This document shows positions 25,854 to 34,105 of a stretch of DNA of 45,366 bases, in pieces. The notes under the pieces are model-generated. The model was not told the origin of the DNA. It ran no database searches and was given only the letters and a program-made list of their open reading frames with translations. Position 1 is the first letter of the stretch. The number at the start of each line of letters is the position of its first letter. Both the position numbers and the translations under genes were made by a program. Source of the DNA: Enterobacteria phage HK225; the sequence record NC_019717.1. One strand, given 5' to 3'.

Positions 25854-28800
25854 TTATGCCTGAGTACGCAGCGCTTCAAGGCGGCGCAGGTCGAAGTCGT
25901 TCAGTTCGTCGGTGTAGTCAGCAGTGATTGGCGCTGGCCATTCACCTGTGTCGAATCCGGTTGCGATATTGCGCATCGCTTTGCGGTACTCGAGCATACC
26001 CAGCTCCAGTAGTTCAGCGGATGCCTCGATGATGGCGATCCAGTGGTAGTTCTCGTCTTTGTTGACGAAAATCCAGAAGAACTGATCCAGCGCTGCGGTT
26101 TCGCAGTACATAGCCGCGCTCAGGTGATAATCACGTTCAATAATTTCCCGGTGTAGCCTGGCGCGCAGGCTTTCCTGCTTAACATTCCACATGCTGATGG
26201 TTTTCAGGTCAGCACCGATACGCACGCCGTCTAGGTCGATCTCAAGGTCAGGGCGCACACGAACTTCCAGTCCCGTCTCCTCGTCAAAGCCAAAGTAGCT
26301 CACCTCAACGGCGCGGCTCGGGTGGGTTAGCAGCATGCCTGCGGTCGGGTGCGAGAGCAGTGCTGACTGAATTGCCTGCGCGGTGGCAAGTTGCTGGTGG
26401 GTAACCAGCACTTTCCCTTCCGGGTTGTTGCGCCACGCATCGAGCAGCTCGTCGGCGAACACTGCATCTGGTTTGACTGCCTTCACGGCCTGAATCAGAT
26501 CGGCCTTCGTGCCAGAGACTTTCAGCGGTTGCAGCTTCTGAGCTTCCTGCGCGACCAGGTCAGGATTGATAATCGCAAGTTGTTCGAGTAGTGCGTCGCG
26601 GCTGCCGCTGGTTTTAATCTGCGCTGGCAGGGTGGCGTTGTACTCTTTGATGCACGCCTTCATTGCTGTTGCTGTCTTCTTCTGATCTGCATCGATACGT
26701 TGGAATTCAGCTGGCAGCGCCATATAGTTCTGCGCCGTTTCATCCAGGCTAGCGCCCAGCGGCACCAGCGCTGGCAGGGTGGCGTTGTATTCATCCAGCA
26801 AAGCTTTGATATCGTCTGCGCTCAGTTGCGCTGGCAGGCTGGCGTTGTACTCATCAATAAACGCGCGGATCGTTGCCGTGGTGGTAAATGCACCTTCCGG
26901 AATTACGGGTTCAACGCTAAATTCTTCATCGAGCTGTTCTGGCTGCAACGCCAGCGCATGTACCAGGTTTCCCATGTCCAGCACTGAGGAGCGCTCTTTG
27001 ACGATGGTTTTCTCAACGTGGCGCGCATTGAAGTACATCAGCGAAACGCGCGCATCTTTTACCTGGGTGGAACTGATGCCGTTGGCAGCGTGGTAAACCT
27101 CGTTCGGCAGACCTTCATAGCGCCCAGGCTCGAAGTAATCGGGGTAAAAAACAGCTGGTTCGTCAGATTGCGCTTCTGGCTCGGTTTGTGCTGCAACTGG
27201 TTCGGTTTGGCTTACAGAATCGCTATTTTTGGCGACAGAATCCGTATTCTGGTTTACATCGTCCTTCTGGCTGGTATCTGACTCTTCACCAGACTCCAGA
27301 CTGCTTTCGCCTGGCTGTACTTCATCACCAACATTTTTTTCATCACTGACAGTTTCTTGAACCTGCACATTGCTGGTGGTTTCCGTAGCCTGTTTCGTGC
27401 CATGAGTTGCTGAGTTCTGCAGTAAAGCCGTAACGTCGAATATTCCGTTGCCGACATTTTTAACCAGTTCTTGTTCGACTTTCTGCGGTTGTGCTGCCGC
27501 TTCCTCTGCGCGGCGGCGTGCTCCTTCTTCACGCACGCGTTGCAGGTTCTCTTCGTGAGTGCAGAAGGATTTGCGCGGAGACTCCTTACCTTCAGGTTGG
27601 GGAATTTCCTGTGCTGCGGGTTCAGCCTCATGCAACGGCAATAACTCGACCGCGGAATTGAACGCGGCTGTCATGGTCTGGTTAACAAATTCCAGGTGAG
27701 CGACAGGAGTTAAATGAATATTTTCCGGTGCGATACGTACCAGGTTAAAAATAGCCGTGCGGTTAACACCCAGAACGCCTGGCTGATTGCGCAGGATGTT
27801 GCTCCATGATTTCCATGGTTCTTCTTTTTTGGTCACGATTTCTTTAGCGCGACGAAGAATGCTGCCCGGGATCTCGAAGTGGTTGAAGTCCATAGGCAGA
27901 AGGGCACACGCAATCTCTAAATCGAGAGTGTCCAGTGTGTGGTGTGCGTCAGGTCCACGGTCAGTGACGTAACCGCCGTCGGCATTAGTGCCGGAATCAG
28001 TACGCTGCACACTACTGATGCGATTACCGGCGGCCCATTCGCGAACGAGGATACCGCGGTCGATGTGATCTGTAGCGAACCACAATTTCAAAAACTGGAT
28101 TAAGGTTGCGAGTTCAGGGATTTTTCCATCGACAGGGAAGACTTTCTTAACGGCATTCACGACTTTATGAATATCGTGCTCAATGGCTTTTTTGAATGCT
28201 TCCACATTCTCAGCTGCCAGCAGCAGGTTCTGGACGTACGCGTCATCGGTGTCCATCTCAAGGCGGACAATCTCATTTTTCTGCCCTGCGTCGATGTGAT
28301 AGAGATATTCACCATCACCGATGAACTGAGCCAGTACGCGCTGGCGGAATGGCAGGGTGGCAACAACGATCAGGTTCGGTTGCTGTGTCTGCTGGGATTG
28401 CTCTTCGGTATCGACTTCACCATCAACGACGCCACCTTCTGCCCGGCCGTTCTCGTCGGTCTGGATACCGTCCTCAACAGTGAGATCTTGACCCGTTGTA
28501 ACGTCAGCAGCGTTGCTGGTTTCAGTTTTGAGCAACTGCAACTTACCACTGCGCCAGTCTTCTACCAGTTGATTGCGGTCACCGGCATCGGTGTTCACCC
28601 AGTCAGACATGAATGCAGCGATCAATCTTGGTTCGTGCTCTTCGTCTGGTGTGAAAATGTCCTTAACCGCCCGAATCATTTTCCACTCAGCATTCAGGCT
28701 GAGTTTGGCGGTCGCGGGCACATCGTTCCTTGCCACAAGCAGGCTATGGAGATATGTATTGCCTTCATCCAGTGACATTTCGCTGGCAGCCAACTGCTGC

Positions 28801-29243
28801 TCTTTAGTGACGTGGGTTTGGTATTTATCGTTCATCAGATGGACGGCAAAGCGGACCGCTGGAGTACGGTTTTCAACCGGGACAATTTCGGACGCAGTCG
28901 CATCTTCAACGATTACGGTCGGAGTAGGTGTGTAGGGGGCGTCAACGGAACCAGTAGACACACCAGCGGCTTTTGGCAGCCAGGTGCGCCCATCGTCCTG
29001 AAGCTCGTAGCGATCACACCAGGTAAAATCAACTTCACCTTCTTTCGGCAGGCCGTCGACAACTGGGAAATCAGTGCGAATCGGTTTGGCGTAGTCCTTA
29101 CCCCGACCTGTTTCGATACCTGCATCTTCCAGCGCAACATCCAGCATCAGATTGGCGCGAGCCTCGGTTTTAGCAGTGAACCAGACCACTGCATCTTGCT
29201 TTCCGGATTTCTGAGTGGCTTTAACCACATTAAAGAATTCCAT
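25854..29243 (-). CDS. recE: RecE-like exonuclease VIII with long N-terminal extension
   Basis: 1129-aa ORF with GAGGA SD, directly upstream of recT; acidic low-complexity middle; C-terminal region consistent with a RecE-type nuclease domain; internal triplicated EYNATLPA module. Confidence 0.7.
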   Translation of the reverse strand: MEFFNVVKATQKSGKQDAVVWFTAKTEARANLMLDVALEDAGIETGRGKDYAKPIRTDFPVVDGLPKEGEVDFTWCDRYELQDDGRTWLPKAAGVSTGSVDAPYTPTPTVIVEDATASEIVPVENRTPAVRFAVHLMNDKYQTHVTKEQQLAASEMSLDEGNTYLHSLLVARNDVPATAKLSLNAEWKMIRAVKDIFTPDEEHEPRLIAAFMSDWVNTDAGDRNQLVEDWRSGKLQLLKTETSNAADVTTGQDLTVEDGIQTDENGRAEGGVVDGEVDTEEQSQQTQQPNLIVVATLPFRQRVLAQFIGDGEYLYHIDAGQKNEIVRLEMDTDDAYVQNLLLAAENVEAFKKAIEHDIHKVVNAVKKVFPVDGKIPELATLIQFLKLWFATDHIDRGILVREWAAGNRISSVQRTDSGTNADGGYVTDRGPDAHHTLDTLDLEIACALLPMDFNHFEIPGSILRRAKEIVTKKEEPWKSWSNILRNQPGVLGVNRTAIFNLVRIAPENIHLTPVAHLEFVNQTMTAAFNSAVELLPLHEAEPAAQEIPQPEGKESPRKSFCTHEENLQRVREEGARRRAEEAAAQPQKVEQELVKNVGNGIFDVTALLQNSATHGTKQATETTSNVQVQETVSDEKNVGDEVQPGESSLESGEESDTSQKDDVNQNTDSVAKNSDSVSQTEPVAAQTEPEAQSDEPAVFYPDYFEPGRYEGLPNEVYHAANGISSTQVKDARVSLMYFNARHVEKTIVKERSSVLDMGNLVHALALQPEQLDEEFSVEPVIPEGAFTTTATIRAFIDEYNASLPAQLSADDIKALLDEYNATLPALVPLGASLDETAQNYMALPAEFQRIDADQKKTATAMKACIKEYNATLPAQIKTSGSRDALLEQLAIINPDLVAQEAQKLQPLKVSGTKADLIQAVKAVKPDAVFADELLDAWRNNPEGKVLVTHQQLATAQAIQSALLSHPTAGMLLTHPSRAVEVSYFGFDEETGLEVRVRPDLEIDLDGVRIGADLKTISMWNVKQESLRARLHREIIERDYHLSAAMYCETAALDQFFWIFVNKDENYHWIAIIEASAELLELGMLEYRKAMRNIATGFDTGEWPAPITADYTDELNDFDLRRLEALRTQA
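26621..26852 (-). repeat. three copies of a 25-bp repeat inside recE
   Basis: + strand GCGCTGGCAGG(G/C)TGGCGTTGTA(C/T)TC at 26621, 26768 and 26828. Confidence 0.85.
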
Positions 29244-29358
29244 GTGAGATCCTCATTTTTGGGTGTTAGAATCCCCGGACCATTGATAGCGCCCATTGGG
29301 TTAACTTTGGTTTTAATGTTGTTTCCGGTGTAACTTTGGTCGGTGAGGCCGGACATGG

Positions 29359-29385
29359 CGGGCCCACTTCGGTGGGCTTTCGCTT
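29359..29385 (+). terminator. hairpin at the 3' end of ORF 29384..29671 (terminator-like on + strand)
   Basis: GCCCAC-ttcg-GTGGGC followed by TTTCGCTT. Confidence 0.3.
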
Positions 29386-31045: not shown

Positions 31046-31258
31046 CTACAACTCATCACGAATCTGTGAGAGTGTGCTGATCGCCTGGTAATGACCGCGA
31101 CGCTGCTCTTCTGTTTTGAACGCACGCATATCGTCTTTTATCGATGCGATTGCCTTATTCAGAACTTCCACTTGCGCTTCTTTAATCGCCTGTTTGCGTG
31201 GCTTCTGACGCTTCTTAGGAAGGTCTCTTAAACACGCCGGAATGTATGTCTGAGTCAT
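31046..31258 (-). CDS. hypothetical basic protein, first gene of the leftward early operon (N position)
   Basis: 70-aa ORF with AAGAGGA SD; Lys/Arg-rich N-terminal third. Confidence 0.45.
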   Translation of the reverse strand: MTQTYIPACLRDLPKKRQKPRKQAIKEAQVEVLNKAIASIKDDMRAFKTEEQRRGHYQAISTLSQIRDEL

Positions 31259-31562
31259 AAAAAATCCTCTTGTGATTCAGCCCAGCCCACTCAACTTCGA
31301 ATGGACTGGAATAAATCTGTTTGCGCTTCGCACCTCTCATCCTGCCAGTGTTGCCCGTTCTCACGCCGTTATCGCTCTCGCGCGGGGATACTCTCTCACC
31401 GACCGGATCGCACCCGGTGATACAGCACGTTTTCGTGTAGGGGTCTTAACAGGTCATTGACGCTGTAAATCTGCATGTTGTTAAAAAGCAGGCGACTTAC
31501 TGTCCGCCGCTGGCTAACTTCGCTCAGCTGTCGATGTTTCGTTTCGATGGGATAATTAAACA

Positions 31563-31645
31563 TCATGTGGATTTATAGGTCAACACCTTGTGGATTTATT
31601 TTGTTGATTTAATCGTTTTTTGTTGATTTTTATGTTGATTTATTT
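31563..31645. promoter_or_regulatory. OL-like operator/promoter region with five direct 9-bp repeats
   Basis: ATGTGGATT / TTGT(G/T)GATT at about 31565, 31588, 31601, 31620 and 31632; same motif as in the cI-cro intergenic region. Confidence 0.55.
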
Positions 31646-31692
31646 TTTGGTGGCATAAGTGATATGCTGCAAAAAACATCAGGAGGTGGCTA

Positions 31693-31898
31693 TGGAACGT
31701 GATGAACTTGCAGATGACCGGATGGCCTTCATGGCTGGAGAGGTTGGGTGTGTGGTGTTCGAACTGATTTACAACGGGATTGAGATCAACAAAGACAACA
31801 TTGTGGGATTTCTGGAAGGGAAGCGTAAAGCCGTCGGGAACGTGATCCACAAGGGGGTGCTACGGGATGCGGCTGAGATGGTACGGAAGGGCAAATAA
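31693..31898 (+). CDS. hypothetical protein transcribed rightward from the OL region
   Basis: ATG at 31693 preceded by AGGAGG (track ORF starts 31659); 68 aa; ends at a bidirectional terminator. Confidence 0.45.
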
Positions 31899-31929
31899 AA
31901 ACCCGGCGCGGTGGCCGGGTTTATTTATT
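31897..31929. terminator. bidirectional intrinsic terminator
   Basis: AAAA-ACCCGGC-gcggtg-GCCGGGT-TTATTTATT between convergent genes. Confidence 0.7.
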
Positions 31930-32575
31930 GCTTAGGAGCTTGTTGTGATGACGATTGGTTAGTTGGAGCGCTCGTTAATGGTTGCTGTGTCGGTACCTGT
32001 ATTATAATTGGAGCCGGGCTGGTTACTGATGGTGACTTGTCATTGCCGGAGATAATCCAACTTGAGGCTAACATCACGCCAGACAGAATCACAGTAACTA
32101 AAGTCAAGCCAACGGCCATCGCCCACTGAGTCGTTGTAAGTCCCGTTTTCAAACCGCCGATTTCACCTTTAATTTCAGCAATACCTCTCTCAATAGAAGA
32201 AAATTGCTGAGTATAATAGGTTTTAAAGTCAGCTGATTCGCGACGCATTTCCGCAGCAATAGACTCTACCTCTGATTTGTTTTGTGAAAGCTTTGCGTCA
32301 AGTTCTTCTCTGGACATTCCGCTCACGCTTACCTCCAGGGTATCACTCTTCATCGCTACATCTTCCTTACTTGGGCGCAAACCCGTTTCGTCCATGGCGT
32401 ATGAAACTCTATTTGATACCTTAGCATCAATACCAATACTTTGGTACTGAGATGGATCCCCATAAGGAGAAACGGTTGTCGCTGCTAGGGTTGCACTAAC
32501 TATAATACTTGGAAGAACTGATGATGTTGTTCCTGAGGTAGGTTGAACTGAAGAAACTGGCTTCAGTCTTTCCAT
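31925..32575 (-). CDS. hypothetical membrane protein (S/T-rich N-terminus, coiled-coil, one TM, P/S/Q-rich C-tail)
   Basis: 216-aa ORF; hydrophobic AMAVGLTLVTVILSGVMLASSWII; AT-rich; start overlaps the upstream ORF by 13 nt. Confidence 0.5.
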   Translation of the reverse strand: MERLKPVSSVQPTSGTTSSVLPSIIVSATLAATTVSPYGDPSQYQSIGIDAKVSNRVSYAMDETGLRPSKEDVAMKSDTLEVSVSGMSREELDAKLSQNKSEVESIAAEMRRESADFKTYYTQQFSSIERGIAEIKGEIGGLKTGLTTTQWAMAVGLTLVTVILSGVMLASSWIISGNDKSPSVTSPAPIIIQVPTQQPLTSAPTNQSSSQQAPKQ

Positions 32576-32829
32576 AGCCCATTATCCCTGAGAGCTACCT
32601 GTAATGATTTTACTAATGCAACAGCTTGATCCGGGCTCATTGAGACTGACATGTTAGGGGTCAACTCAACTTTTACTTGGAAGCTATTCTTTCCTTGCTC
32701 ATCAGACTGCATGTGATGCTCAAATTCATGGCGGTAAAAAGTAATGATTGTTTCAGCACGATCAGGCGTAATAAGAACTGATGTGGCGGTCATGTGCTGA
32801 GGTATGATTTTAATAGTGTTATCTGACAT
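32563..32829 (-). CDS. hypothetical protein (88 aa from the SD-preceded ATG)
   Basis: track ORF 32563..32970; only the ATG at 32829 has a good SD (AAGGA); alternative starts at 32865 or 32871. Confidence 0.4.
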   Translation of the reverse strand: MSDNTIKIIPQHMTATSVLITPDRAETIITFYRHEFEHHMQSDEQGKNSFQVKVELTPNMSVSMSPDQAVALVKSLQVALRDNGLWKD

Positions 32830-33024
32830 AAGTATCCTTTTTGTTTCCTTAGTATTTTTTTGCATTGACATCAGAAATAGCGAATCCACAAGAGTATGAG
32901 TAAAGCTAATCAGTTTAGTGATACGGTGACTATTAAAGTGGTAAACCACATCAAAGCTCGCAGAGTGCATACCAGGCTGTCACACATGACAAAGTAACGA
33001 GGATGCCTGATCTCATAGCGCTCA

Positions 33025-33177
33025 AAGAGACATGCCGATAATGGCATTAACCACGCATGACGCCATAAACACGCCGCCAACGATGAAGCTGGCTTGGTTC
33101 TTCCTGGTAGCGCCAAGAGTCAACAGAACCACTGAAAGGGCAAAAAAAGGTATCGCGATTATGCTGAACGTGTTCAT
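33025..33177 (-). CDS. small hydrophobic peptide (51 aa, two predicted TM), not in ORF track
   Basis: hand-translated MNTFSIIAIPFFALSVVLLTLGATRKNQASFIVGGVFMASCVVNAIIGMSL; GAGG SD 5 nt upstream; immediately downstream of cI. Confidence 0.35.
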
Positions 33178-33281
33178 GTTGACCTCAACTTATTTCGATT
33201 CTCCATCACCCTTAATCCGCCGCCCCATGTGTTTGTTGTGATCCGTTGCTGGCCTTAACCAAACGTCTCTTCAGGCCACCG

Positions 33282-34001
33282 CTACAGCAATACCGAGTAC
33301 CAGAAGAGGCGGCCGATTATCTCAACATCATCAATGTCAGCTTCTTCATCAGGGTAGGCCTCATTGTTGTAGCTGCGGATAATTAGCTTTCCGCCTGGCT
33401 TACGATACAGCTGTTTAATGCGCTTGAGTTGACCATTCCCGCCATCTGTCTGACCAATGGCATACAGTTTCCCATCAACTATGCGTTTGTTGTTCGTATC
33501 GACGGCTACAGTCGTACCATCCGGTATCACAGGTTCCATGCTGTCGCCAGTAGCAGGGAAACACAGGATGCCAGACCCATCTGTGTTAGCTCCAACGCGG
33601 CGGAGGGTTGCCTTTGAGAACCTGAGCTTAAAACCATTGTGATCTTCGCTGTGTACGCGTCCATCGCCACACGCAAATTCAATATCCTTAAGAAATGGCA
33701 CTTCAACCTCATCAACAGGAAGCGGGGTGTCTTTATCCCATGCATCAACAACTCCCCACTCAGACTCTGGCGGGATGTTGCTCTCCAGATCCTTCTTTGG
33801 AGAACCCTCTCCATTTAATAAGCAGTCAAGAGAATAACCGAATTTTTCAGATATTTGTTGCGCCGCCTCACGACTTAACGCGTCTCTTTTTATCCAGTTG
33901 TTGACGGTCTGTGGGCTAGTCGACAAAGCCTCAGCCAAATCCCGCTGCTTCAAGCCTTCCCTTGCCAGTAAAAATTTAATTCTTTCAGAAATGCTACTCA
34001 T
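33282..34001 (-). CDS. cI: CI-like prophage repressor (HTH plus S24 LexA-like peptidase)
   Basis: ATG at 34001 after GGAGGG; N-terminal HTH (LKQRDLAEALSTSPQTVNNW); C-terminal GDSM serine motif and conserved Lys. Confidence 0.85.
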   Translation of the reverse strand: MSSISERIKFLLAREGLKQRDLAEALSTSPQTVNNWIKRDALSREAAQQISEKFGYSLDCLLNGEGSPKKDLESNIPPESEWGVVDAWDKDTPLPVDEVEVPFLKDIEFACGDGRVHSEDHNGFKLRFSKATLRRVGANTDGSGILCFPATGDSMEPVIPDGTTVAVDTNNKRIVDGKLYAIGQTDGGNGQLKRIKQLYRKPGGKLIIRSYNNEAYPDEEADIDDVEIIGRLFWYSVLL

Positions 34002-34029
34002 AAAACCCTCCGCTCCATGCATGGTAAAC

Positions 34030-34105
34030 AACATGTGGATTTTTTCCATCACCATAATGTTGATTTAATCCACATCATGAATTAACATGGTGTTGATTAC
34101 ACATG
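34030..34105. promoter_or_regulatory. OR-like operator region between cI and cro
   Basis: 19-bp near-palindrome ATGTTGATTTAATCCACAT at 34057-34075 plus half-sites ATGTGGATT (34033) and TGTTGATTA (34091). Confidence 0.6.

Follow-up and report, generated by a model that had tools for sequence, protein, structure and literature searches.

Just past the left operator of a phi80-type immunity region, we identified a conserved rightward gene encoding a 68-aa protein that is very probably homologous to the E. coli regulator AriR/YmgB. The gene lies in a stretch of 45,366 nucleotides (the window, meaning the whole stretch analyzed), which reads as an entire lambdoid phage genome of 45 kb in the order structural genes, leftward early genes, immunity region, and replication genes. 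The coding sequence, which occupies positions 31692-31898 on the plus strand with its stop codon at 31896-31898, was assigned to an AriR/YmgB-like protein of PHROG 3975 from the ORF, its family, and the profile and structure matches described below. A sequence-only reading of the same DNA had placed this ORF at 31693-31898; the 68-aa rightward ORF does exist, its start being however at 31692, as the frame read from 31693 contains stops. The AGGAGG Shine-Dalgarno sequence named in that reading is present at 31682-31687, 4 nt 5' of the ATG, and the gene indeed runs rightward, begins just past OL, and is convergent with the leftward cI-side genes.

Directly 3' of the stop codon stands a hairpin with a perfect 9-bp stem and a 6-nt loop (31899-31922, both strands; AAACCCGGC-N6-GCCGGGTTT), followed by a T-run. 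It was scored as an intrinsic terminator in both orientations by a terminator scan, folds with -20.5 kcal/mol on the plus strand and -16.0 kcal/mol on the minus strand (z of about -3.4 each versus shuffled sequence), and is homologous to the terminator found 3' of lambda rexB. The stop codon of the convergent 216-aa gene on the minus strand is located 2 nt past it, and the hairpin therefore lies between both stops, in accordance with the earlier proposal of a bidirectional terminator common to the two genes. A GC hairpin is also kept 3' of the 68-aa-type gene in most related loci.

The 68-aa protein matches PHROG 3975, a family of unknown function, from end to end (E value of 5e-35). Ten coding sequences were compared pairwise by codon position, and a bias toward differences at the third position was found in 21 of the 21 comparisons; the window gene and its homolog in locus L004, for instance, differ at 7, 2, and 30 sites at positions 1, 2, and 3, and a second pair differs at 5, 0, and 29. 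Since differences falling mainly on codon position 3 are a signature of purifying selection, the 68-aa ORF is, on this comparative evidence, a real gene under purifying selection in its plus-strand frame. We did not retain the 84-aa ORF that lies antisense at 31596-31850, as its strand is not consistently open in the relatives and the substitutions fit the plus-strand frame.

Homologs of the protein are numerous. Clustering at 90% identity gave 169 (window type) and 490 (phi80 type), all from Enterobacteriaceae and all named hypothetical, and a profile search of 1.84 billion representatives returned 119 families at 50% identity, almost all of 60 to 75 aa. A homolog was present in 8 of 50,697 phage records. 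The window and phi80 subfamilies are about 45% identical and share an invariant C-terminal helix, G-N-V-I-x-K-G-x-x-R-D-A-A-E-x-V-R. The family profile also matched 10 stretches of a highly repetitive protein of 1,977 aa (P0280; E value of 1.2e-12) via a repeated LLGYLRKSGSVIDKP segment, a match that probably represents repeat-summed chance rather than homology.

The position of the gene is fixed. At 19 genome loci from different genera, as well as in phi80, it lies immediately to the right of an operator-like repeat array which itself comes after a conserved PL leader (cgatgtttcgtttcgatgg), and cI or cII follows 0 to 3 kb further right. By our reading of the alignments, at least seven operator types appear to be represented among the loci with the gene, which would make their carriers heteroimmune phages. 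In one Citrobacter meridianamericanus locus (L009, 3870-4192), imm80-like operators are found together with a gene that has no extended -10 element and a frameshifted C terminus (63 aa); this copy, the only one to have lost the element, is apparently decaying.

The same gene was found in phi80, a classic model phage and notorious laboratory contaminant. A tblastn search located a 69-aa homolog at positions 33348-33557 of JX871397, in the gap between OL and gene 40A, a region in which no feature is annotated in JX871397, NC_021190, or X13065. In E. coli DH5alpha, the phi80 copy is present at 100% identity at 127164-127373 of NZ_CP025520.1, beside an intact phi80 cI, where PGAP lists it as hypothetical protein WP_000362427.1, and the region of this copy occurs in 75 of 5,426 complete E. 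coli genomes. The phi80 ORF (identical to WP_000362427.1) and a hypothetical protein of HK639 belong to the same family as the 68-aa protein, with 45% identity. They share with it the position, promoter-like element, leader, and terminator, and the 340 bp upstream are 97.4% identical. In contrast, the phi80 protein belongs to the other subfamily, has the C-terminal tail KGSKAVK, and is followed by gene 40A and not by HK97-type gp48/gp49. A literature search to which the 1988 Ogawa papers were external gave nothing relevant on phi80 OL transcripts or the M3 RNA. DH5alpha-type cloning strains carry the phi80 immunity region, and a conserved gene there that is absent from the phi80 reference record and only "hypothetical" in bacteria would be a small correction to a well-studied map. 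The AriR-like reading gives this overlooked gene, found in common cloning strains, a concrete and testable functional hypothesis.

We analyzed the surroundings of the gene by transferring the OL, PL, and nutL coordinates from the phi80 annotation (JX871397) across window positions 31341-31681, which are 97.4% identical to the nutL/PL/OL region of phi80. OL1 (31555-31573) overlaps the PL -10 element (31555-31560, minus strand), and OL2 (31578-31596) overlaps the PL -35 element (31578-31583, minus strand); the sequences of both operators are identical or near-identical to those of phi80. The nutL core (31426-31437) and boxA (31482-31490) together span 31426-31490 on the minus strand and belong to the leader of the transcript that runs leftward from PL. 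The view that the repeats in this region are CI operators was borne out, as they coincide with the annotated phi80 CI operators (31555-31573, 31578-31596, and 31621-31640). The third of these, called OL3 in phi80 (31621-31640), matches the 19-bp operator consensus well in one half only. The operator half-site TGTTGATT is repeated directly, with copies at 31603-10, 31622-29, and 31634-41 that begin at -73, -54, and -42 when numbered from the predicted start site of the 68-aa gene.

The DNA-binding domain at the N terminus of CI is essentially identical to that of phi80 CI, Cro differs from phi80 Cro by one residue, and OR1 to OR3 are identical to those of phi80; this phage thus has phi80 immunity. 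The ORF listed for cI (33282-34055, minus strand, 257 aa) begins too early, its upstream extension crossing OR3/PRM, and comparison with phi80 CI places the true start (MSSISER...) at the ATG at 34001, giving 239 aa. Within 31300-32000, Rfam returned no known RNA. A 56-aa ORF on the minus strand (31396-31566) is probably spurious: it begins inside OL1, covers the nutL boxA and core, and has no Pfam or PHROG match.

Between the operators and the gene lies the sequence TGaTATGCT (31660-31668, plus strand), which we read as a predicted promoter of the extended -10 type that would start transcription near 31675. TGNTATGCT occurs once in the 45-kb window. TGnTAnnnT is found at the same place in 17 of the 21 loci compared, or 19 of 21 when one deviation is allowed, across different operator types, and the conserved form TGnTATGCT lies 15 to 28 nt 5' of the start codon in nearly all loci. 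A generic sigma-70 scan called no promoter for the 68-aa gene, because there is no match to a -35 element (TTATTT at -35). The conservation of the element could partly reflect its place at a recombination joint between phage modules. Readings of TGGCAT...ATGC and of the A/T-rich element as sigma-54 and sigma-28 promoters were rejected by eye, the spacing being wrong and the bases not kept in relatives.

The element is followed by a 5' leader (31669-31691, plus strand; CAAAAAACATCA) which includes the Shine-Dalgarno sequence and is conserved in relatives. Folding revealed no significant secondary structure in this leader, and it has no Rfam match. The leader sequence AAACATCA resembles the left half of OL1 and was considered as an extra CI half-site, a candidate we rejected as the same leader is found in phages with other operators.

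A second conserved sequence, the A/T-rich element ATTTATTTTTT (31638-31648), is located just past OL3 and is conserved in heteroimmune relatives, lambda, and HK97. Relative to the rightward promoter it takes up the -35 region; relative to PL it is at about -90 to -100. In most loci, this element (ATTTATTTTT) starts 22 nt 5' of the promoter TG; the heteroimmune relatives share the A/T-rich element, TGnTATGCT, and the leader CAnAAAAAACATCA, while the 12 nt between the first two vary. In lambda, the A/T-rich element is found about 70 to 97 bp upstream of the PL start, and lambda PL is stimulated by IHF and upstream A/T tracts. By analogy, the element probably serves PL too, as an upstream (IHF/UP-type) element. 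Five loci (L012, L015, L008, L018, and L014) have an A/T tract followed, on the minus strand, by TATCAAnnnnTTA, which matches the IHF core consensus perfectly and is located about 30 to 45 nt 5' of the extended -10 TG, between the last operator and the gene promoter; these five loci share one operator type and are therefore not independent.

The predicted -10 hexamer (31663-31668) lies 22 nt past the last annotated operator. Taking 31675 as +1 puts the end of the last half-site at about -34/-35 and the center of OL3 at about -44.5, so that no operator of the phi80 type covers the -10 element or the start site of the 68-aa gene. In phages of the GGTTAAT type a half-site reaches about -39, and in relatives of the ATAGCAAT type the nearest full operator is centered near -66. 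Given this geometry, simple occlusion by CI is not evident. OL3 is placed more like OR2 at PRM; from the phi80 annotation, we calculated that OR2 is centered at -42 there.

Structure prediction and a remote-homology search, both of which the sequence-only reading had proposed, returned a three-helix fold and a match to AriR/YmgB (2OXL). AlphaFold2, run on an alignment of 15 sequences, predicted a three-helix bundle with helices at residues 5-27, 34-47, and 51-66 and a mean pLDDT of 92.5, and the top Foldseek match of this model was 2oxl_A (probability of 1.00, TM scores of 0.79/0.86). Because AlphaFold was trained on the PDB, this structural match is not fully independent; the profile matches are. 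A profile of 41 family sequences searched against all PDB sequences gave 2OXL as its sole match (E value of 1.7e-5), whereas a 15-sequence profile reached an E value of 0.27 against the same entry. In addition, hhalign against an alignment of 13 AriR-family proteins gave a probability of 86.5% and an E value of 4.6e-6 over 49 columns.

The relationship is a distant one. The 68-aa protein is only about 20 to 24% identical to AriR/YmgB (2OXL; PF10798) and has 68 aa versus 88, the AriR-family sequences carrying about 30 extra N-terminal residues that are absent from it. It had no PF10798 match even at an E value of 10, staying below the Pfam gathering threshold, and weak matches to PF10798 were found in 4 of 41 family members (best E value of 0.0072). 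Moreover, AriR is encoded in the ycgZ-ymgABC operon under BluR/BluF, while the 68-aa protein is encoded by a single monocistronic gene beside a phage OL. Because it falls below the PF10798 threshold, lacks the N-terminal 30 residues of AriR, and has a different genomic context, we place the 68-aa protein on a distant branch of the AriR fold that is carried by phages, outside the curated family. Scans of the protein against Pfam, NCBIfam, and PADLOC gave nothing usable; weak matches to DUF6240, FakA_C, and DUF2767 were rejected, as they were not reproducible across the family. The BFVD viral fold search gave no match at an E value of 0.001 or below.

What is known of AriR/YmgB suggests a function. 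SpoT is bound by AriR at its TGS-helical region, which causes ppGpp to accumulate; most of the loss-of-binding substitutions in AriR map to helix 3, and the R74G substitution abolishes SpoT binding and ppGpp accumulation while Rcs activation is kept (PMC10704370). Activation of the Rcs phosphorelay by YmgB does not depend on RcsF (PMC11709261). Both the replication of lambda and Stx phages and their lytic development are inhibited by ppGpp (PMC4770323). In the hhalign alignment, Arg58 of the 68-aa protein aligns with Arg74 of AriR, and R58 is invariant in the closer family alignment (A1). A single conserved arginine, however, does not establish a common binding partner with AriR.

We propose that 31660-31922 would form a self-contained rightward transcription unit, consisting of an extended -10 promoter, a short leader, the 68-aa gene, and a terminator. 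In phi80-like lambdoid phages of Enterobacteriaceae, this unit would occupy the slot that is bounded by the A/T-rich end of OL on one side and by the immunity-region terminator on the other. The fallback suggestion of the sequence-only reading, an independent moron, comes close to this result, namely, a self-contained unit of predicted promoter, gene, and terminator. By analogy with AriR, the minimal three-helix product would bind a host signaling protein, and not DNA, via helix 3, which is highly conserved. It may target SpoT at its TGS-helical region, and so raise ppGpp, the Rcs phosphorelay in its cytoplasmic part, or both. Such binding could shift host physiology (the stringent response, capsule, or biofilm state), and this shift would in turn disfavor lytic growth or alter the phenotype of the lysogen. 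We infer promoter activity, the time of firing, and the binding partner of the 68-aa gene. Taken as a whole, a self-contained rightward unit with an AriR-like product acting on a host signaling protein seems to us as probable as all other accounts together, and the naming of SpoT or Rcs components as the specific targets, drawn from the AriR analogy, is more tentative.

There is a precedent for such an activity. Lambda Orf73 and TraR are small phage and plasmid proteins that mimic the action of ppGpp/DksA on RNA polymerase (PMC9239242). Orf73 exemplifies a very small lambdoid-phage protein that taps the stringent-response circuitry of the host; fold and target are unrelated to those of the 68-aa protein, and the parallel is an analogy only. 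If binding to SpoT or Rcs were true, the phage would encode, right at its lysis-lysogeny switch, a means of acting on the stringent response or on capsule/biofilm control. The orphan E. coli regulator AriR would likewise gain a plausible phage ancestry; in E. coli, the ymgB region is a neighbor of prophage e14, and it has been suggested to derive from a phage (PMC3509220).

The proposal can be carried further. CI bound at the third OL site (centered at about -44.5, compared to -42 for OR2 at PRM) might activate or permit a "maintenance-side" promoter that would be the mirror image of PRM. In that case, an AriR-like connector that binds SpoT/Rcs would be produced constitutively from the prophage, setting the ppGpp level and envelope stress of the lysogen and stabilizing lysogeny, and the chromosomal ariR beside e14 would be a domesticated descendant. 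We regard this combined scenario as speculative and distinctly unlikely in its entirety.

The product could instead act inside the phage, tuning the lysis-lysogeny decision directly via CI, N, H-NS, or the DNA around PL/OL. Such a role would suit the fixed position beside OL across many immunity types, and YmgB was first described, in the title of the 2OXL entry, as structurally Hha-like, and it was originally proposed to be a gene regulator of the Hha kind. The 68-aa protein has no fold or sequence match to structures of the Hha/YmoA family. We consider a phage-internal regulator unlikely.

Other readings concern the slot itself. In lambda and HK97, the flanks of the slot are homologous, namely, the A/T-rich element past OL3 and the GC hairpin AAAACCCGGCGC..GCCGGG, and about 120 bp of noncoding DNA separate them, whereas phi80 and this phage have the predicted promoter and the gene there. 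The 68-aa gene is thus present or absent at the same site, being absent from lambda and HK97 despite the homologous flanks. Since the slot is empty in these two phages, the lambdoid life cycle can do without the gene. Together with the layout of a self-contained unit adjoining a slot that collects prophage cargo, this would fit a lysogenic-conversion or defense/antidefense factor, mediating for example superinfection exclusion via the capsule or a target other than those of AriR. However, PADLOC returned no matches, and the gene is conserved across many lineages, unlike the neighboring cargo. We find a conversion or defense factor improbable and give it little weight, compared to a unit acting on host signaling in the manner of AriR.

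The cargo next to the gene is variable. The convergent 216-aa gene (31925-32575, minus strand) belongs to PHROG 5820 and is, judged by its identity to HK97, the equivalent of HK97 gp48. Window positions 31890-33279 are 99.6% identical to HK97 26877-28263, which comprises gp48, gp49, and the end of cI; this HK97 block sits in an otherwise phi80-like immunity region, with a sharp mosaic joint at the terminator. The gp49 equivalent is annotated with 88 aa in HK97 versus 135 aa in the ORF list for this DNA. HK97 has no homolog of the 68-aa gene. Conversely, phi80 combines a 68-aa-type gene with gene 40A as cargo, E. coli KCJ3K291 combines a gene 97% identical to that of the window with a YafO toxin cassette and an XRE-type repressor, and in locus L011 the 68-aa-type gene is directly convergent with cI, with zero cargo between them.

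These arrangements bear on the main suggestion of the sequence-only reading, that the gene, if the repeats are CI operators, is under repressor control and that its product may antagonize or regulate the adjacent lysogenic cassette with the 216-aa membrane protein. The two genes are convergent with one terminator between them, and operator half-sites do reach position -35 of the predicted promoter in the phi80 immunity type, but no operator extends across the -10 element or start site. Moreover, gene and cassette are each found apart: HK97 has the cassette, 99.6% identical, without the gene, and phi80, KCJ3K291, and L011 have the gene with other cargo or none. As the cargo varies while the gene stays, and the HK97 cargo exists without it, a dedicated functional pair is unlikely, and the claim that the 68-aa product antagonizes or regulates the 216-aa cassette was not sustained; we consider it very improbable. 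Finally, that transcription itself would be the function, insulating PL/OL together with the terminator from read-through of the cI operon, with an incidental peptide, might be imagined from the bidirectional terminator and the tightly packed divergent and convergent promoters but is scarcely credible given the strong purifying selection on amino acids, a helix 3 that is invariant across subfamilies of 45% identity, and the fact that lambda and HK97 manage with the terminator alone.

Further observations concern the leftward side of the immunity region. The homology to phi80 ends at 31341, and the nutL segment (31340-31490) matches Stx2 phages at 93 to 94%. A 70-aa ORF on the minus strand (31046-31258; PHROG 5305, function unknown), with the basic N-terminal stretch KKRQKPRKQ, occupies the place of phi80 N and may encode a short N-type antiterminator. 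In the leftward early operon, a 1,129-aa ORF (25854-29243, minus strand) has an acidic, repeat-rich middle. Adjoining the left side of the start of this ORF, at 29285-29382 on the plus strand, is a match to the Hfq-binding small RNA isrB (RF01386), which scored 38.2 bits versus a cutoff of 35; nothing else in the window reached the Rfam gathering threshold.
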